From an uncultured virus (IMG/VR IMGVR_UViG_3300009068_003844) (lineage: Duplodnaviria > Heunggongvirae > Uroviricota > Caudoviricetes), in the IMG/VR virus record IMGVR_UViG_3300009068_003844: DNA of 64,000 bases; one strand, written 5' to 3'. Positions 5,986 to 42,368 of this stretch are shown here, in pieces. Every line of letters begins with the position of its first letter. The first letter of the stretch is position 1. The notes under the pieces are model-generated. The model made no database searches. It worked only from the letters and a program-made list of their open reading frames with translations, and was not told the origin of the DNA. The translations under genes and the position numbers were made by a program.

Positions 5986-6738
5986 GTGATATACAAAAAC
6001 AAAAGCAAAGCAATCAAAGAAACTGGCATTAGTTACTTGGGCAGCGTCAATATGACTGCCAAGCATTCTAAGGCATTTAAATATAACGAACTTACATATT
6101 CTTTGTATTTATCTCCTGCAAATACATCTGGATTTGAAGTTTGTGCAGGAAGAACAAAAGAATGCACAATTGCTTGCTTGCATGAATCTGGACTTAATCG
6201 CATAGATCATAAGCAGAATAATATCAATAAGTCTAGAATTGCAAAGACAAGGCTCTTTTTTCAAGAGCGTGATTATTTCATGAGTTGGATGATTGATGAA
6301 ATTGAATCAACAAGAAGTAAGGCTAAGAAACTTGGATATAATTTTAGTATAAGATTAAATAACACAAGTGATTTATCTCCTGAAATCTTTACGCTTGGAG
6401 ATAAGAATATTCTCGAGATATTTAGTGACTGCCAATTTTATGAGTACAGCAAGATCTATCGAAGAATTGCTTTAACTAAGAAATATCATAATTATGATCT
6501 AACTTTTTCATATAGTGGAAATAATATTGAAGAATGTCAAAAGGCAATCAATATTGATAATACTAGAGTGGCTGTGGTTTTTAAAGATAAGTTGCCTGAA
6601 AAGTTTATTGATCATGAGGTTATTAGCGGGGATGAATATGATATGCGTTATCATGATCCAAAAAACGTAATAATTGGTTTGAAATTCAAAAAGGTTAGAA
6701 ACGAAATCGATCTTAATAACAATTCTTTTGTTGTCTAA
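5986..6738 (+). CDS. Gp88-like phage protein
   Basis: LSPA...VC...C...CL, RLNNTSDL, QFYEYSK, YDLTFSYSG, GDEYDMRYHD are typical of the phage GP88 family. Confidence 0.7.
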   Translation: MIYKNKSKAIKETGISYLGSVNMTAKHSKAFKYNELTYSLYLSPANTSGFEVCAGRTKECTIACLHESGLNRIDHKQNNINKSRIAKTRLFFQERDYFMSWMIDEIESTRSKAKKLGYNFSIRLNNTSDLSPEIFTLGDKNILEIFSDCQFYEYSKIYRRIALTKKYHNYDLTFSYSGNNIEECQKAINIDNTRVAVVFKDKLPEKFIDHEVISGDEYDMRYHDPKNVIIGLKFKKVRNEIDLNNNSFVV

Positions 6739-15461: not shown

Positions 15462-15480
15462 CTTTCCCTCCGGTACGGTT
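15462..15480 (+). promoter_or_regulatory. Phage motif copy CTTTCCCTCCGGTACGGTT
   Basis: Intergenic, 20 nt before 15500 start. Confidence 0.7.
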
Positions 15481-22266: not shown

Positions 22267-23084
22267 ATTATAAAAAAATATGAGAGAATTAAATTCTGAG
22301 GACTTGAGTAAGTTCGCAACCAATAACGGCTTCATCATTAAAAAAAAAGATGAAGAATACGAACTTTATAGCAAAACAGAAGATAAGGTTCTGCTTTTCA
22401 AGAGTGTAAAAGAAGCATTTAGAAGAATCTCCGACGAAATTAATATTTTAAAGAAAACAAAAAATGTCCTACATTGATAACGATAAGGAAATCAAAGAGA
22501 CTATTCTCAAGTTGAATAGCCTATTTGAAGCAAATAAAGAAATTTATATCAATCAACTAGATCACAAGGCATATCTTAGTTCTGCTCTTTTCAAGATCAA
22601 GAATAATCTTGAAAGGCTAGTTAAGAATCCAAAGGACTTGCCAGAAGTTATTTTCAATTGCTTTGAAATCGCAAAGCCATTAACGCCATACTATAGCACC
22701 GACCTTGGTAAAAATAAAATTGATCAGCCATTAACCAACGAAGAAAAATTAGGTTTTCTTGAGAAGTTGGAAAAGTTTCAAGTCACGGATGAAATGAAAA
22801 ATAAATACAAGGAAACAGCAGATCAAGGAGGTTAATGTGAACTCTGATTACCGAGTAGTAAATATTGGTGAAATGCAAGACTATTTCATTATTCAAGAAG
22901 TTTACTATAATGATAATGAAGAAGTCGTTGGTTCATCAAATGCAAACCCCTGTGGAAATTCAGTTGAAGAACTGGTACAATTTGCCAATTGTATTTTAAA
23001 TGCAAGTAAAAAACCAGTCCTAAAACTGTAAAAAAGGGGATAAAGGTTTAAAGGTTGATTTTGGTTTGATTTAGGTTGATTTTT

Positions 23085-23361
23085 GGCCCAGTAGCTCAAT
23101 TGGATAAGAGCAACAGCCTTCGTGAAATAGGAGTGCTTAGAGAGAAATCTTTAATGTAGAATCGCTTAAATTCGGTGAAGGCTTAACTGCTAATACCGAG
23201 CCAAGCCTAAGCAATTAGGAAGGTGTAGAGACTTAACAGGCGACACCTAAAGTTGAAAGACAATGGTGAAGATAAAGTCCAGACCACAAACAGTAATGGT
23301 AGTGAAAACTATAGTGGTACCGCTAAGCTGTAGGTTCCAAGTTCGATCCTTGGCTGGGTCA
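23085..23361 (+). tRNA. tRNA-Arg(UCU) interrupted by a group I intron
   Basis: Exons 23085-23120 and 23323-23361 form a cloverleaf: GGCCCAG/CTGGGTC, ACAGC-CTTCTAA-GCTGT, T-loop TTCGATC. Confidence 0.9.
23121..23322 (+). ncRNA. Group I intron (202 nt) inserted after U34 of tRNA-Arg
   Basis: 5' exon ends in U, intron ends in G; core AAATTCGGTGAA, AATACCGAGC, GTAGAGACT, AAGATAAAGTCC. Confidence 0.9.
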
Positions 23362-23426
23362 TTTTGTTTTTTTGTTTTGTTTAGAAAAGTGCAAAGTATT
23401 TACTATTAATATTTTGTGCTAATTAT

Positions 23427-23567
23427 TCCGTGATAACTCAACGGTAGAGTGTTCGACTGTAAAAAGCCACTGAATTGAAGCTCAAAAAAGCTGGCAATTT
23501 ATGTTGGGTTCAATGCCCAAACAGTGGATTAATCGAATGGTTCTTGGTTCAAATCCAAGTCACGGAG
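23427..23567 (+). tRNA. tRNA-Asn(GUU) with a 69-nt insert in the anticodon
   Basis: TCCGTGA/TCACGGA acceptor, G73, D-arm ACTC/GAGT, stem TTCGA/TCGAA, T-arm CTTGG-TTCAAAT-CCAAG. Removing 23461-23529 restores CT-GTT-AA. Confidence 0.75.
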
Positions 23568-23606
23568 CTACAAGCTGGTTTGAATATAAAGAGCTACAAA
23601 CTTTGA

Positions 23607-30365: not shown

Positions 30366-30465
30366 GGTGAATGTAGCGTAGTGGTAGCGTGAGGGAAGTT
30401 CCGAACTGCGACAGCAGAGTAGGCAAACAAATGCCCTTGTGGTGGTTCGATTCCACCCATTCGCC
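30366..30465 (+). ncRNA. tRNA-like RNA (8-bp His-type acceptor) with an expanded non-canonical anticodon region
   Basis: GGTGAATG/CATTCGCC, D-arm GCGT-AGTGGTA-GCGT, GAGGG/CCCTT enclosing 38 nt, T-arm GGTGG-TTCGATT-CCACC; promoter TTTACA-16-TATACT directly upstream. Confidence 0.7.
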
Positions 30466-30484
30466 CTGGCCAAAGAAAAAAACA

Positions 30485-30733: not shown

Positions 30734-31612
30734 GTGAAAATGACTAGTTACTCAGAAAAATATCACCAGTTCATCTCAAACGTTACTTATGAGGATGTTG
30801 ATTGTTTCATTAAAAATGGAACTATGATTAATGGGGAAAAGCCCAACAATATTCAAAAGACAGCTTTGTTTTCAATTATTAAGACAGAACCATATTATGC
30901 TTACTGCTATGCTAGGGATGTAATTAAAGACCGGTGGATTGAAGTTGAAGAAATCATAAAGAATAGCCGTCCAGAATATATCCATCATTATGCCAAAGAT
31001 GTTATCAAGGGACGGTGGATTGAGTGCGAAGAGATTATCAAGAGTGATCCCCAGTATGCTTATCTTTATTCCAGAGATGTAATTAAAAATCGTTGGAATG
31101 AAGCAGAAGAGATTATTAAGACTGACCCATATTATGCCTATCTCTATGCTAGAGATATAATTAAAGATCGCTGGATTGAAGCAGAAAAAATTATTAAAAC
31201 TAGTCCTGCATATGTTTACTATTACACCAAAGATGTCCTAAAAGATAGATGGATTGAAGCTGAGAGGGTTTTAATCCACTATATGTATCTTTACGCCAAA
31301 GATATAATTAAAGGCAGATGGATCGAATCAGAAGGGATTATTAAAACTGATCCACGATATGCCTATTATTATGCTAGAGACGTAATCGAAGGTCGCTGGG
31401 TTGACGCAGAAGAAACCATAAAAACTAGTCCAGAGTATGCCTGTGGTTACGCTAAAGATGTAATTAAAGGAAGATGGATTGAAGCAGAAGAAGTCATCAA
31501 GACTAGTCCAGAATTTCTTTATCAATATGCAGTCGAAGTAATCAAAGGAAGATTATCAGAAGAACTTGAAAGTGTTTTTGAAACACTCGAGTTTCCTTCC
31601 GGTACGGTTTGA
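30734..31612 (+). CDS. Helical tandem-repeat protein (~25-aa repeats)
   Basis: About 9 repeats of PxYAYxYARDVIKxRWIEAEEIIKT. Confidence 0.8.
   Translation: MKMTSYSEKYHQFISNVTYEDVDCFIKNGTMINGEKPNNIQKTALFSIIKTEPYYAYCYARDVIKDRWIEVEEIIKNSRPEYIHHYAKDVIKGRWIECEEIIKSDPQYAYLYSRDVIKNRWNEAEEIIKTDPYYAYLYARDIIKDRWIEAEKIIKTSPAYVYYYTKDVLKDRWIEAERVLIHYMYLYAKDIIKGRWIESEGIIKTDPRYAYYYARDVIEGRWVDAEETIKTSPEYACGYAKDVIKGRWIEAEEVIKTSPEFLYQYAVEVIKGRLSEELESVFETLEFPSGTV
31591..31609 (+). promoter_or_regulatory. Phage motif copy GTTTCCTTCCGGTACGGTT
   Basis: At a gene end, before 31652. Confidence 0.7.
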
Positions 31613-32374: not shown

Positions 32375-33298
32375 ATGTCAAAGGAAAGTGTAACAAAGAA
32401 GAAGTGTCCCACTTGCGGCAAGGGCATTTCAAGCAAGAAGATTGCAGATAGCCTAATGCCAGATAGCCTGACAAGTCTTGGGACTGTTGCTAGGCTCAAT
32501 AAAGATCTCACTAATAAGATTAAGACCCTCACCAAGGATGAAGTGAGGTATATTGTTGATTACTATTATATGATTCAAGAGAATCGTAAGCGAAGCACCA
32601 ATCAGATCACCGCTTTTGGCAAGGATAAAGAGCCTCATGAACTCTTTAGTTTCTTGAACGATCAAACAGAAGTTCTTGAAACTCAAATCAAACGGGCTAT
32701 GGATCACTGGACTGATAGTTTTTTGATTGCAAAGATTTTGAAGGATAAGGTTTACGGAATCGGTCCTGTGATTACTGCTGGTCTTGTTGCTCATATTGAC
32801 ATCAATAAGGCAAAGACCGCTGGTGCTATTTGGCGTTATGCTGGTCTCGATCCCACAAGTAAGTGGGAAAAGGGTCAAAAGCGTCCCTGGAACGCCAGCC
32901 TTAAAACCCTGTGCTGGAAGGTCGGGCAGAGTTTCATGAAGTTCTCTGGTAAGGAGGAGTGCTTCTATGGTAAGCTTTACAAGACCCAGAAGGAGTTTCT
33001 TGTAAAAAAGAACCTTGAAGGCGGATTCAAGGAACTTGCTGATTCTGTCTTGAATTCAAAGAACTTCAAGAACAAGGAAGTTATCGCTAAGTATAAGAGT
33101 GGAATTCTGCCAGATGGTCATGTGGATGCTATGGCAAGGCGTTGGGTGGTTAAGTTGTTCCTGAGTAATGTCCATGAACTTTGGTGCAAGGTTGAAGGAA
33201 TTGATTGCCCCAAGCCTTATGTCATGGCTCATTTGGGACACACCCATCATATCATTCAGCCAAATCTTTTGGATATTGATGAGTATTTGAAGAAGTAG
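32375..33298 (+). CDS. tasA: TIGR-associated Nop-domain protein (TasA-like; IS110 C-terminal-like, no nuclease domain)
   Basis: Coiled-coil region, then YGIGPVITAGLVAHIDINKAKTAGAIWRYAGLDP, WNASLKTLCWKVGQSF, YGKLY, HVDAMARRWVVKLFL. No RuvC DEDD, HNH or IS110 catalytic SG motif seen. Dual-spacer array nearby. Confidence 0.8.
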   Translation: MSKESVTKKKCPTCGKGISSKKIADSLMPDSLTSLGTVARLNKDLTNKIKTLTKDEVRYIVDYYYMIQENRKRSTNQITAFGKDKEPHELFSFLNDQTEVLETQIKRAMDHWTDSFLIAKILKDKVYGIGPVITAGLVAHIDINKAKTAGAIWRYAGLDPTSKWEKGQKRPWNASLKTLCWKVGQSFMKFSGKEECFYGKLYKTQKEFLVKKNLEGGFKELADSVLNSKNFKNKEVIAKYKSGILPDGHVDAMARRWVVKLFLSNVHELWCKVEGIDCPKPYVMAHLGHTHHIIQPNLLDIDEYLKK

Positions 33299-33304
33299 AA
33301 AAAC

Positions 33305-33472
33305 ATGAATTACTATATTGAAAAGCATGATATGGAAATTATCTTGGATGCTTTGGAAAATCTTGTAGAAGATATGAAACACGCTAAAGATAATGGTCAT
33401 TTTAACTACACATATAGTATTGAAGATGTTGATGCACTTTTTCAGAGTTTAGATAATAGTGGCTCAGAGTAA
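33305..33472 (+). CDS. Small acidic hypothetical protein (55 aa, below ORF-track cutoff)
   Basis: MNYYIEKHDMEIILDALENL..., starting 7 nt after the tas stop. Confidence 0.55.
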   Translation: MNYYIEKHDMEIILDALENLVEDMKHAKDNGHFNYTYSIEDVDALFQSLDNSGSE

Positions 33473-33518
33473 CAGATTATTGAAAAACTGTTTAAGTCAA
33501 TGTCCGGGTAAGTAAACA

Positions 33519-33833
33519 ATGAATAAAAAGTTAAATTTTTTTAAAGATTTCACTTTAGGCGATGTCCTAAACAGTATAAATGAAAAATTTTTAGTTGATA
33601 TGTCTAAAGATGAAGAAGAATACTTTCTCTGCCAAATAGAAATAGATAAAGTCGAACAGAATGATGTTGGAATTTTTGATGGAAAAAATTGTATGCGTTG
33701 TCTTTCCTCAAAAGATGTTCTTAAATTAATTGATCATAATGTTTTTAAGGTTATAAAAACAGATCCAAGTTCTGCTTATAATGTTGGAGTTGTTTTAACT
33801 TTTTATTCATTAAAACCTTATAGTTTTATTTGA
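33519..33833 (+). CDS. Hypothetical protein, paralog of 59799-60113
   Basis: Shared IEID..G(I/L)F.G..C...K(L/I)(I/L)DH..K(V/I)IK..YN(V/L)G..L.F...KP..FI. Confidence 0.65.
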   Translation: MNKKLNFFKDFTLGDVLNSINEKFLVDMSKDEEEYFLCQIEIDKVEQNDVGIFDGKNCMRCLSSKDVLKLIDHNVFKVIKTDPSSAYNVGVVLTFYSLKPYSFI

Positions 33834-34324
33834 TAAGTTAAAGTCTAGGTACGTGCAGTTTATTGAGAAGAAACATGGACACAGCAATTAGACTCGCAAA
33901 CAAACTCCGTGCATGGGCAACTAACGTCTTTGAAAACGGACCCGCATCTTTTAGGAAAAAAGCAGCAAAAATAATCTTTTCGTGCGACGAGTTTGTAAAA
34001 GAATACGATAGAAACATAGAACATCTCTTATCAAGTAGATTGTCAAATAAAGATGTAACAATCCACGAAGCCCACAAAATCATGCAACAAGCCCTTTTCC
34101 TTACCTTCACCTATGGTGAACTGCGGGGCTTGGAGTGTAATCTCCTACCGAAAGTCCTTAGATTGTGCGTAGAAGCCAATATAAAGGCTCCAGAAGGATG
34201 GCACGGTAGACTAATTGTACCTACTGGACTCAAAAACAAAGACGCCGAACGAGCAAAAATTTACAGGAAAAGATTTCTAGCCACGAAATAGCGACAAGAC
34301 CAACAAGGAGACTAAAAGATAATT

Positions 34325-34666
34325 ATGAAATCAAATTTTAAGGATGTTCTCAACACTTGCGTAACACAAAAAATTCAAAGAAAGTTAGATGGTTTTGTTT
34401 CGGGCGGCAAAATTATACACTTACAATTTCTCATCGGCCTAGATTCGTTTGTCGAGGTTGATATAAAAATGGATTTGACGGTACAAACCGATGAATACAA
34501 CGGCGAAGGTTATTGTTTCTACGAAATATACAATCTTCATATAGTAAGTAAGAAAGTTATAGGAAAAGACGTTGACGAAGATGTAATACTGGAAATGGCA
34601 GAGGATAGAATAACTCCCTTGCTGGAATACATGGATCCTGTAGAGGACGGGGCGTGTGATTTTTAA
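34325..34666 (+). CDS. Hypothetical protein
   Basis: ORF with GGAG RBS. Confidence 0.55.
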   Translation: MKSNFKDVLNTCVTQKIQRKLDGFVSGGKIIHLQFLIGLDSFVEVDIKMDLTVQTDEYNGEGYCFYEIYNLHIVSKKVIGKDVDEDVILEMAEDRITPLLEYMDPVEDGACDF

Positions 34667-34716
34667 ATCTTATTATTAGTCACAAAAATTTATAGGGACG
34701 AAAAAGTTACAAAGAA

Positions 34717-35184
34717 ATGAAATTAAATAAAATTTATTATACCGAAATGTGCGAGTGTGATTCATGCACCGCCTTCAGTTTACTCGGAGAGGATGCGTAC
34801 GACCCACAGCCTATAGTTAAATCTTCCAAAAAGCAAATCGATCAAATAAAAAAAGTTATATGTGAATGTTTTGACGTTGTTGATGAAAATGGAAATCGTG
34901 AAAAATGGAAGCACAAACCTTTTACCCCTAATCACATGATTGTTGATAACGTGGGTAATTTAGAAACCGATGGTACGCCCCTAGTGACAGTTGAATTAAT
35001 CAATAGTGGTTGTTACGATTCACCACTAGAAATTTATCTAAAAAATTCAAAAGGTAAATTAATGCTTTTTGAATTTATTGTAGGAGATTACTTACAGATA
35101 CCATCCCATTATTTCAAAATGAGTGTTAAAGAAATTGAAAAAGAATTGAAAAAGTGCATAATAATGCACACTTTTACTAAATGA
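34717..35184 (+). CDS. Hypothetical protein immediately upstream of the array
   Basis: ORF, CECDSC. Confidence 0.6.
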   Translation: MKLNKIYYTEMCECDSCTAFSLLGEDAYDPQPIVKSSKKQIDQIKKVICECFDVVDENGNREKWKHKPFTPNHMIVDNVGNLETDGTPLVTVELINSGCYDSPLEIYLKNSKGKLMLFEFIVGDYLQIPSHYFKMSVKEIEKELKKCIIMHTFTK

Positions 35185-35239
35185 TAATCAATAAGTTAAA
35201 GTCTGGGTATAGAGTTTTGAACAAGTTGAAAATTAACTG

Positions 35240-35914
35240 GAGTGAACCAGTGGCTGAGATTTTAACAAAAGTCAAGAGTGAACCAGTTTCCTTGATTTTA
35301 ACATGCGTCCATGAGTGAACCAGAAGCCCAGATTTTTTCATTTTGCCGGAGTGAACCAACCTGCTTGATTTTAACAAGGACGAGAAGTGAACCATTATTA
35401 ACGATTTTAACATGAACGTTGAGTGAGTCATCAGACTGGATTTTTACATACTGCCGGAGCGAACCAAGCCCGACGATTTCAACAAGGTAGTTAAGTGAAC
35501 CAATGTGAGAGATTTTACATGTATAGTGAGTGAATCACAAACGGCGATTTTAACACCGCATTCGAGTGAACCATATGTCCGGATTTAAACAGACCTCTGG
35601 AGTGAACCACAGTCGGGAATTTTAACAAATTTGGTGAGTGAACCATCATTCGATATTTTAACAAGGTAGTTGAGTGAACCAACCTGCTTGATTTTAACAT
35701 AGATGAAGAGTGAACCTAGCCCTTCGATTTTAACATAGTTGTCGAGTGAACCATAAAATCTGATTTTACATGCGTGAAGAGTGAACCTAGTGCCGGTATT
35801 TTAACAATGTGCGAGAGTGAACCAAATAAGAAGATTTAACATGATGGTTTAGTGAACCTAGCTGTGCGATTTTAACAATGTGCGAGAGTGAACCAAAACC
35901 CTCTGATTTTAATA
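35240..35914 (+). ncRNA. TIGR-like array: 19 units of ~36 nt with two alternating repeats and two ~9-nt spacers
   Basis: Unit = (G)AGTGAACCA - N8 - (G)ATTTTAACA - N8. Units start at 35240, 35276, 35313, 35349, 35385, 35421, 35457, 35493, 35528, 35564, 35600, 35636, 35672, 35708, 35744, 35779, 35815, 35850 and 35886. Strand inferred from flanking genes. Confidence 0.88.
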
Positions 35915-35941
35915 ACGAACAGGGTGTCCATAACAAGTAAA

Positions 35942-37261
35942 ATGAGAACAATCAAAATTAATAATGGCAAGAAAACAGCAACTATACAAGTTAATGGTTT
36001 CACAACCAAAGAACTTATAAACCAAATACATTTAGCTGAAAAGAAGAAAAAAGAATCAAAAATTAAGCACTATCAATACTTGAAAAGTGTTAGTGAGTCT
36101 GAGGACAAGAAAAGTTTAATTTTTAATTTTAGCAACAAAACAAATGTTAAATATTCTCTGATTGATAATAAGTTCTATGACGCAGAGACAAATACTCTTA
36201 TTAAAAATCCTAAGTCATGTATAAAATTTGCATCTGGCAATCTTTCTGGATTGGCGAGAGATAAAGATATTTATAAATTGTGCAAAGAAGAATGGATTCA
36301 GTTATTCTTCATTATCACCAGCCGTGAAGATTACTATGTACCTGATAGGAGCGATCTTTTTAGTATTTTAAATAATCCTGTGATTATGGGGGATTTTGAA
36401 AAATTTGCAAAGTGGGACTTTTTACAAAAAAATAAAGAAAAATTCCACCATCTAGAATTCGCACAAATCTATTTTGATTATAATATTAAAACTATAAGTG
36501 ATTTTAAAAAGTATAGCTTGGATTACTATATTGAAAAATTAGATACAATGGTTGCTGAATATAGTAGTGTTCCGGCTGATTATATGAGATTAGTCGATTA
36601 TGCAACTCTGGAACGGTGGTGCGAGGTTAAAAATGTAGATGTGATAAAGTATGCAATTGACAACTATAATCGGTTTCCAGATATGCACGATGAATATTTT
36701 AATATCTTAATAAAGATGGGTTATGACAAATTTAAATTAACAGATTATATTTGCAGGGGGTTGCCTAATCAGGGAATTGAAGATATTGAAGATGCATTAT
36801 CAATTCTTCATGATTATGCAAAAATGAACGTTCAAATGAAAAATGATTTTGATAAGTATCCAAGATATCTTAAAACACTTCATGATATAACTAGCAAAAA
36901 TTATGAGGTCTTAAAAAGTAGAACTTTTAAAAATAGGTTCTCTAAAGTTTGCAAAACTTTTAAAAAATATGAATATAAAAATGAAAGGTATAGCGTAATA
37001 GCCCCAGTTAAACACGAGGATTTAATTCAAGAAGGAATAAAGCTAAATCATTGCGTTGCAAGCTATGACGAAGATATCGCTAATAAGAATTCTACTATTT
37101 TGTTTTTAAGGTTAAACTCTGAAATTCAAAAACCACTAGTAACAATTGAAATTAAAAATAACAAAGTTGTTCAAGCAAAAGGCCACTCTAATTCTAATCC
37201 AAAGAATGAAGAAAAGATTTTCTTAGAAGAATATAAAAATTACCTTAAAGGTGTAAAATGA
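35942..37261 (+). CDS. PcfJ-domain protein
   Basis: DLIQEGIKLNHCVASY, ILFLR, LVTIEI, VVQAKGHSN; start moved to ATG 35942, after the array. Confidence 0.8.
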   Translation: MRTIKINNGKKTATIQVNGFTTKELINQIHLAEKKKKESKIKHYQYLKSVSESEDKKSLIFNFSNKTNVKYSLIDNKFYDAETNTLIKNPKSCIKFASGNLSGLARDKDIYKLCKEEWIQLFFIITSREDYYVPDRSDLFSILNNPVIMGDFEKFAKWDFLQKNKEKFHHLEFAQIYFDYNIKTISDFKKYSLDYYIEKLDTMVAEYSSVPADYMRLVDYATLERWCEVKNVDVIKYAIDNYNRFPDMHDEYFNILIKMGYDKFKLTDYICRGLPNQGIEDIEDALSILHDYAKMNVQMKNDFDKYPRYLKTLHDITSKNYEVLKSRTFKNRFSKVCKTFKKYEYKNERYSVIAPVKHEDLIQEGIKLNHCVASYDEDIANKNSTILFLRLNSEIQKPLVTIEIKNNKVVQAKGHSNSNPKNEEKIFLEEYKNYLKGVK

Positions 37262-37413: not shown

Positions 37414-37700
37414 GCCAAAGTGGCGAAATAGGCAGACGCAAGGGACTTGATATTAAATTGAGTGCCTAAAAGGAAACTTTTAGAGCAGAACTGCTCAAAT
37501 TCGGTGAAGGCTTAACTGCTAATACCGAGCCAAGCCTGAGAAATCAGGAAGGTGTAGAGACTTGACGGGCAGCACCTAAAACTGAGAAGTTATGGTGAAG
37601 GTAAAGTCCAGACTACAAACCGCAAGGGTAGTGAAAACTATAGTGGTAAGAAAATCCCTCGGGATAACATCCTGTGCGGGTTCGACCCCCGCCTTTGGCA
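37414..37700 (+). tRNA. tRNA-Leu(UAA) interrupted by a group I intron
   Basis: Exons 37414-37448 and 37651-37700: GCCAAAG/CTTTGGC, AGGGA-CTTAAAA-TCCCT, long variable arm, T-loop TTCGACC. Confidence 0.92.
37449..37650 (+). ncRNA. Group I intron (202 nt) after U34 of tRNA-Leu
   Basis: U at 5' exon end, terminal G; core nearly identical to the tRNA-Arg intron. Confidence 0.9.
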
Positions 37701-37701
37701 T

Positions 37702-38160
37702 TTATTTTTTCTTGTTTTTACCACGAAAGTTTGGTGTCAAACCGTGGCAGTTGTAACAAAGAATTTCTAAATTAGAAAGCTCATTGTTTGAAGAATCTCC
37801 ATCTTTATGGTGAAGTTCTATTGGAATTAAATTCCCAAGCCAATGAGTATTCTTGCAATTCATGCATTTATGTTCAAAGATTTTTTCTCTAATTAACTTC
37901 TTTTTTAGTTTGAAACTTTGAGTGTTACTTCCTTTAACAAGATATGATTCAATTGGTTTTTTTGGTGGTAGAACAAACCCTTTAGACCATCCGTGACCCT
38001 TAAAGTGAGAAGTGTCTAAATTAAACTTCTTAATATATGCTTTTATTGTGGCGTAATTACCACCGGCAGCAACTAATTTTAATTTAAAAAGAACTTGTCT
38101 CACTGATGTTGAACTTTCAACAAGTTCTTTTAAAGTTTCATGTGTGTATGTGTATTTCAT
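37702..38160 (-). CDS. Free-standing HNH endonuclease
   Basis: KCMNC, IELHHKDGDSSNNELSNLEILCYNCH; stop codon abuts the tRNA-Leu 3' end. Confidence 0.88.
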   Translation of the reverse strand: MKYTYTHETLKELVESSTSVRQVLFKLKLVAAGGNYATIKAYIKKFNLDTSHFKGHGWSKGFVLPPKKPIESYLVKGSNTQSFKLKKKLIREKIFEHKCMNCKNTHWLGNLIPIELHHKDGDSSNNELSNLEILCYNCHGLTPNFRGKNKKK

Positions 38161-38226
38161 AAATTTAAAACTCTTTATACTATATATATAGTAGAGTTTT
38201 AAATTTTTATTCAACTAAAGGAAAAC

Positions 38227-42100: not shown

Positions 42101-42364
42101 CCGAAGGTAGCAAAACGGTTAATGCAACAAACTCATGAATTTTCGTGCCATACGATTGGAAACTTCGTATGGGATGTCGTCAAATTCGGTGAAACCTAAA
42201 TGCGTGAGCATATGGCAATGCCGAGCGAAGCCCGTAAGGGAACGTGTAGAGACTTAACGGCGACCACCTAAATCGTAAGATATGGTGAAGACAAAGTCCA
42301 AGGAGTGGTGAAAATCACACAAACTTGAATTTGTAGACTGTGGGTTCGAATCCCACCCTTCGGA
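42101..42364 (+). tRNA. tRNA(CAU), probably Ile2, interrupted by a group I intron
   Basis: Exons 42101-42136 and 42328-42364: CCGAAGG/CCTTCGG, ACAAA-CTCATAA-TTTGT, GTGGG-TTCGAAT-CCCAC. Ile2 inferred from adjacent tilS. Confidence 0.85.
42137..42327 (+). ncRNA. Compact group I intron (191 nt) after U36
   Basis: CAT^ exon end, terminal G; core AAATTCGGTGAA, AATGCCGAGC, GTAGAGACT, AAGACAAAGTCC. Confidence 0.88.
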
Positions 42365-42368
42365 CGTA

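Follow-up and report, generated by a model that had tools for sequence, protein, structure and literature searches.

Dual-repeat TIGR-TasA systems (Faure et al. 2025, PMC12045711) are exemplified by FpTIGR, in which units of 36 nt consist of an edge repeat, a spacer A, a loop repeat and a spacer B. The locus studied here has the same unit layout and shares with FpTIGR a solo Nop-domain protein, carriage by a phage and box C/D-type pairing in both repeats. The repeats themselves differ, since they start with AG or AT and end with CCA or ACA here, rather than having the form UG...CCA as in FpTIGR. A further difference is that tasA and the array are 1.9 kb apart, with a variable block of genes between them, and that no terminator was found behind the array. 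The best match in both sequence and fold is SpTIGR-TasH of Salicola phage CGphi29 (PDB 9W04, 21KL), at 24% identity. Its repeats are similar, and position 9 of its spacers is likewise almost fixed, being mostly A where the present array has G; each of its spacers pairs over 8 bp (10.64898/2026.08.11.744272). SpTasH carries an HNH domain, which the TasA protein studied here lacks, and a Tyr/His pair can be aligned in the two. The locus is almost certainly a dual-repeat TIGR-TasA system, that is, a known kind.

The window (the whole stretch of 64,000 nt that was analysed) belongs to a 251-kb virus record. The record includes what we take, from reading the ORF list, to be a T4-like capsid protein, and a large, T4-like, aquatic phage is the best explanation. 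For the cluster of one of its genes the commonest known phylum is Planctomycetota, which is a weak hint as to the host.

Table 1. Features of the tasA-array region, in window coordinates
Feature	Position	Strand	Remarks
tasA	32375..33298	+	307-aa Nop-domain protein, predicted to lack a nuclease domain
Variable small-ORF block	33299..35240	+	ORFs 33519-33833, 33863-34291, 34325-34666 and 34717-35184; between tasA and array
Dual-repeat TIGR array	35241..35895	+	18 complete units (~36 nt) plus closing edge
Unit 4	35350..35385	+	Same order in L045 (twice), L005 and L043
Unit 6	35422..35457	+	A/B-swapped in L037/L041/L042 with 0 changes in 16 variable bases
Unit 7	35458..35493	+	Recombinant that joins the A half of sister unit L005.5/L048.2 to the B half of unit 12
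Unit 12	35637..35672	+	Widespread pairing of the shared B half: twice in L005, also in L048
Unit 13	35673..35708	+	Spacer A identical to that of unit 4
Unit 14	35709..35744	+	Spacer A paired with AGGTAGTT in L005/L048, as read directly from the sequences
Units 16-18	35780..35886	+	Fixed 3′ block in window, L005 and L048
Degenerate unit 19	35887..35923	+	Like the terminal unit of L045 and L004 by visual comparison
PcfJ-like gene	35942..37261	+	PF14284, E 7.5e-25; directly behind the array

The array, its TasA protein and their surroundings

The edge repeat of the array is AGTGAACCA and the loop repeat ATTTTAACA. The three 35-nt units mentioned in a preliminary description of this DNA are units 8, 15 and 17, each with a loop shorter by one base, and its single 37-nt unit is unit 2. 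Spacers are 9 nt long, and the claim that their last position is almost always G was borne out by the count (30 of 36); G prevails at position 9 also in most of 108 arrays with the same edge repeat. Because SpTIGR has a near-fixed base at this place and pairs 8 bases per spacer, the G is most likely a near-fixed structural base rather than target sequence. Positions 2 and 7 can pair in all 19 edge repeats (G-C or G-T) and in 14 of the 15 nine-nt loops (T-A). Among 440 loops of other arrays, which are related and hence not independent, 281 showed Watson-Crick pairing at these positions, versus a shuffle mean of 187 and a maximum of 214. This pairing matches boxes D and C as described in PMC12045711. 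Degenerate unit 19 has a loop variant identical to that of L045.32; downstream of the array no terminator was found, and a promoter scan gave results at chance level. Among arrays sharing the edge repeat, a Tas match was present at 42 of the 80 loci with full flanks. Two other arrays deserve mention in their own right: G010:C1 has a short second array (275355-275560) that is preceded by a consensus TTGACA-17-TATAAT promoter and whose first unit is degenerate, carrying an AGGTAGT half in the A position, and L335 has at 157-400 an array of 18-nt period with halves near-identical in both registers, either TIGR-like or a simple repeat.

In phmmer comparisons TasA matched SpTasH at E 1.4e-16, the identity being the one given above, and TaTasR at E 8.6e-12. 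With its structural model (pLDDT 88.5), the ten top Foldseek hits were all TasH or TasR proteins, IS110-type recombinases ranking lower (E 0.009-0.045), and the match to PF02371 was partial, C-terminal and below cut-off (20.9 bits). Y282 and H289 align with the C-terminal processing pair Y289/H296 of SpTasH, and H289 is invariant in 112 sequences; a processing role of H296 is described in PMC13421893. The HNH residues N45, H54 and H58 of SpTasH fall on S31, R40 and D44 and are thus unmatched. About 50 residues precede the coiled coil, and the model has there no strand of three residues or more. As judged from sequence and model, TasA is nuclease-free, with HNH and RuvC absent before the coiled coil. 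The low-confidence N-terminus contains a lone CxxC motif (window 32405-32416), kept in L004 and L005, which may be what is left of a zinc-binding nuclease domain since lost.

The distance of 1.9 kb between tasA and the array is not a constant feature, as the two directly adjoin each other in L004, L040 and L047. The ORF block between them is missing in these three loci and replaced by other DNA in L005 and L043; within it no Pfam family scored over cut-off and no PHROG family was found. The PcfJ-like gene stands behind the array in the window only and is missing at that place in the sisters L005 and L048. In L005, a 74-nt piece of array units 1-3 (6355-6428) is joined into the middle of a 104-aa ORF at the start of the intervening block, 2.4 kb upstream of a main array that is without unit 2. 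Junctions of gene swapping thus fall at the edges of the array, as would fit a high level of recombination in this region.

Several other elements were noticed in the window. A 19-nt direct repeat, with only two copies in the genome (33833-33851 and 35191-35209), lies once 30 nt before the array and once before a 142-aa ORF, and is a candidate promoter or cassette boundary. A 22-nt intergenic motif with core TTTCCCTCCGGTACGGTT has seven copies, at 15463, 31592, 37337, 46355, 56871, 58894 and 61323; all are on the + strand, they are all the copies of the genome, and the motif, possibly a phage promoter or operator, also occurs in L004 and L005. Three tRNA genes, for Arg, Leu and Met (ARAGORN; 23084-23362, 37414-37700 and 42101-42365), have introns of about 190-200 nt, and two of these three interrupted genes match Rfam group I introns; ARAGORN also proposed that the tRNA-like genes at 23427-23568 and 30367-30466 are interrupted by short introns. 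An HNH endonuclease gene (37702-38214, - strand) lies directly behind tRNA-Leu, and the matching place in L005 is occupied by different DNA, in which a tRNA and a tmRNA-like sequence were recognised by eye. A 292-aa protein (30734-31612) is made of about eight 26-residue repeats with a period of 78 nt; several copies of this type of protein, for which no family scored over cut-off, are found near tasA in relatives.

Half-spacer reuse and unit histories in related arrays

The preliminary description held that half-spacers are reused with different partners, and three exact cases are indeed present: ACCTGCTT is spacer A of both unit 4 and unit 13, with partners differing at 4 of 8 positions, while AGGTAGTT is spacer B of units 7 and 12 and ATGTGCGA spacer B of units 16 and 18, with partners differing at 8 and 5 of 8 positions, respectively. 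For the 306 spacer pairs compared, 0.0054 exact same-register matches were expected, and none of 20000 simulations gave three or more. The near-copies that it also listed exist, but they are marginal with respect to chance (4 with two mismatches seen versus 1.4 expected, P=0.056).

The assembly was checked on contigs of four runs (X1-X4), not on raw reads. The whole stretch is found in one contig with 0 differences in each of X1-X3, which are possibly the source data; in X4, unflagged as source, three contig pieces (35053-35449, 35453-35707 and 35860-36200) also show 0 differences. That the duplicates are assembly artefacts, an eventuality raised in the preliminary description, could be argued from the use of contigs only and from the possible origin of the record in three of the runs. 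It is nevertheless extremely improbable, given that the sequence is identical across the contigs of all four, that the shared stretches are short (~20-30 nt) and that units 16-18 are present in two other records, L005 and L048.

Twelve further loci have the same type of loop, hence a set of 13 comparable arrays, in which L037, L041, L042 and L044 differ so little as to be near-clonal and L340 is a repeat of L004. The 3′ block is common to the window, L005 and L048, and parts of the 5′ block are common to these three and L043, while the middles of the window, L005 and L048 arrays differ in order and content. Ends are therefore conserved and the middle is reshuffled, so that array change is not of the polar-only kind that had been envisaged as the opposite case.

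Comparison of the window with L005 and L048 shows that 72 nt are missing from the window, with the break within the loop plus AGGT; unit 7 thereby joins the A half of a sister unit to the B half of unit 12. By this comparison it is clearly the product of a crossover between two units found in sister phages. The pairing seen in unit 12 is taken as the older one, because variants of it occur in the outgroups L040 and L047; that of unit 7 was seen only in the window. One clean deletion is not sufficient as a full explanation, since position 9 of unit 7 is A and not G, and the metagenomic contigs L005 and L048 could themselves contain chimeric units. L045.29, which differs by at most one change from the A of L045.22 and from the B of L045.16, is likely a second chimera. 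The other cases are less clear. Spacer B of unit 13 has four changes relative to that of unit 4, three relative to a variant of the latter and one relative to that of L004.17, and the unit may be either a re-pairing or a diverged copy of unit 4. Spacer B of unit 14 looks, in the window, like the AGGTAGTT half shifted by 3 nt. Units 16 and 18 have in common, besides their spacer B, an edge variant (CCT then AG), and are probably a duplicate whose A half changed. Among the three examples of half reuse originally put forward, only that of units 7 and 12 is a clear re-pairing. Broken, out-of-register units are present in sisters (L004.16, L005.6, L047.2 and L048.8), so that the recombination process is often imprecise. 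Arrays of the L004/L045 type are found at loose contig ends in three of the runs X1-X4, and the lineages therefore meet.

Swapped pairs and possible targets

Some units occur elsewhere with their halves exchanged. Unit 4 is A/B-swapped in L004 unit 8, with 1 change in 18, and the swapped form of unit 6 (Table 1) is found in L271 too, with 2 changes; in both cases the exchanged halves are each placed between proper edge and loop repeats. In the close set, swaps amount to four pairs in two families at ≤2 changes in 18, for a null mean of 0.005 pairs. The wide set (1264 units with loops of 7-11 nt from 88 loci, L282 being left out) gave 14 swapped pairs at ≤2 changes versus 0.48. Five of them come from the low-complexity array L335 and one is apparently mis-parsed, which leaves the unit-4 and unit-6 families plus one more. 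No exact cross-register half-only match, the expected intermediate of a stepwise swap, was found in the close clade.

From the published 8-nt 3′ overhang, the target is derived to be A followed by the reverse complement of B, and with this geometry a swapped unit addresses the same site. Cutting of the same site in vitro by a swapped guide (TasR), self-processing by dual-repeat Tas proteins and repression of transcription by TasA are described in PMC12045711, 10.64898/2026.09.09.750476 and PMC13421893. In-register crossovers cannot swap halves, and to swap them in steps would take several microhomology events, with intermediates left behind. Since swaps occur, in-register recombination cannot make them and intermediates are unseen, the swaps are most simply accounted for if both halves of a pair are written at once from a single target, in either orientation. 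We know of no acquisition protein for TIGR systems, and none was seen near the locus. In the three sources just cited, the way in which TIGR arrays gain and change spacers is stated to be unknown. A search for shifted, overlapping targets gave no more than its control, and the spacings between spacer changes agreed with a codon period in 5 of 8 cases across halves (in one of three geometries) and in 2 of 7 cases within halves.

No target above background was found for the array guides in any geometry searched. Targeting of self or kin was rejected, as scanning of 133-164 pairs in 9+9 and 8+8 geometries with gaps revealed no exact match at gaps 0-3 in G000, G001, G002, G010 and the array loci; near matches were comparable to the re-paired control (10 versus 5.4 for one mismatch, 8+8, with duplicated loci). 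Scans for 18-nt targets gave 0 and 1 matches in viral sequences and 32 in genome contigs, about the chance expectation. A large group of these 32 is presumably one ribosomal-protein S12 site of marine Bacteroidota, a name given from the translation; no match fell in Planctomycetota. Scans for 16-nt targets gave at least 120, 13 and 11 scattered matches. In 3 of the 13, the 8+8 target of unit 6 is exact at a terminase site, and the L271 variant, set as a test beforehand, is exact at the homologous site of a fourth record in 1 of the 11. The terminase proteins concerned are 45% identical, the two patterns have 14 of 16 bases in common, and the family bearing them is very abundant (HTVC010P/P26218-like). 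In 11 candidate records, the other 161 guides were not enriched (33 versus ~30 at ≤2 mismatches and 431 versus 378 ± 20 at 3). The terminase site in small aquatic phages is thus a weak lead as target of unit 6. The candidates G005, G006 and G009 were discarded, no second guide being found at gap 0.

Routes of guide diversification and known systems

The best explanation, which we regard as probable, is a TIGR-TasA system in which recombination between repeats is combined with pairs acquired from targets. By analogy with homologues, the array would be transcribed and cut in its edge repeats into 36-nt guides, probably by the Tyr/His pair of TasA itself, and each guide would lead a TasA dimer to a DNA site where spacer A is read on one strand and spacer B on the opposite one, probably over 8+8 bases. 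Without a nuclease, the likely outcome would be a transcription block on the DNA of another phage or of the host. The comparison of arrays shows that whole units are duplicated, lost and moved by ordinary recombination and slippage between repeats, and that halves are re-paired when a crossover falls within the loop and a small number of shared spacer bases, which accounts for half reuse. New spacer pairs would enter as a unit copied from a target, with the symmetric complex oriented either way; such copying of whole pairs would give mostly unique halves, pairs kept in distant relatives and two pairs swapped in the same register. The swap families of the close clade are only two.

It is unlikely that guides diversify mainly by combinatorial half-unit recombination, without acquisition from targets. 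The two chimeras, unit 7 and L045.29, speak for such a process, as do the between-family half-links at ≤1 change, 26 in register versus 12 cross-register with 8.9 expected (for exact links in the close clade, 4 versus 0, with 0.38 expected), and the exact half-only sharing in 16 of the 88 loci of the wide set (21 cases in register versus 2 cross-register among 12325 within-locus unit pairs, besides 25 whole-unit near-copies). However, the 219 units of the close clade reduce to 164 distinct pairs in 130 families with few half-links between them, 25 of the 34 unit pairs sharing one identical half have partners within three changes, and a number of pairs are still present in L271, where TasA has 63% identity; for these reasons half re-pairing, although real, is a secondary, minor route. 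It also supplies no new spacer sequence, since it makes no new 8-mers, and full swaps are found without intermediates. The idea of the preliminary description that guides diversify by half-unit recombination thus stands insofar as unit 7 and L045.29 attest the process, and fails as an account of the main source of guides, in view of the family number, the kept partners and the swaps. In a search that covered literature outside subscription journals, nothing on half re-pairing or natural swaps was found.

A quite conceivable alternative, compatible with the best explanation, is that re-paired units are neutral damage from repeat instability, guides without a target, and that only intact pairs are selected. 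The broken units of the sisters and the restriction of the unit-7 pairing to the window, when that of unit 12 is widespread, fit well with it; on the other hand, three genomes have kept both unit 16 and unit 18, two units with a half in common, and the AGCCCTTC/AGGTAGTT pairing is found in two. Halves could also be rewritten singly from a near-matching target, in a kind of primed updating whereby the retained half gets a new target-derived partner. The partners of ATGTGCGA (units 16 and 18) and AGGACGAG (L047.8) are seen nowhere else, and some halves seem to be displaced versions of others, by 2-3 nt, as this would have it, but the shifted-overlap test was not above control and duplication followed by small indels gives the same patterns, which renders it improbable. 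One may speculate, though we find it doubtful, that TIGR arrays have an acquisition route of their own, by which the two halves of a 16-bp site defined by Tas are copied into a new unit, time and again in the same register and with either orientation, that loop-repeat crossovers add combinatorial guides, and that unit 6 with its swapped and variant forms tracks a conserved terminase site of small aquatic phages, the natural target of a repressor-type TasA.

The 13 clade arrays make it possible to separate documented recombination from swapped pairs that recombination does not readily make, and so bring, from a known kind of system, comparative evidence on the open question of TIGR acquisition; for finding natural targets and testing target-templated acquisition, the best queries are the units that are swapped or long conserved. 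With the transposases of IS110 elements, which use a bridge RNA, TasA has a Nop-type RNA-binding domain in common; an IS110 element was rejected, as the TasA model has no DEDD RuvC domain and the guides sit in an array. CRISPR-Cas is ruled out by the two repeats with 9-nt spacers, versus a single repeat and 25-36-nt spacers; no Rfam CRISPR repeat was found in the window and no cas family among the 15 neighbours scanned. In CRISPR arrays, as PMC12045711 also mentions, spacers are lost, duplicated and rearranged when repeats recombine, and here too internal units are deleted or duplicated through repeats. Unlike CRISPR arrays, the present one has no Cas1-Cas2 and no clear leader-polar order, and its two repeats per unit permit crossovers inside the guide, which would give rise to new A/B pairings.
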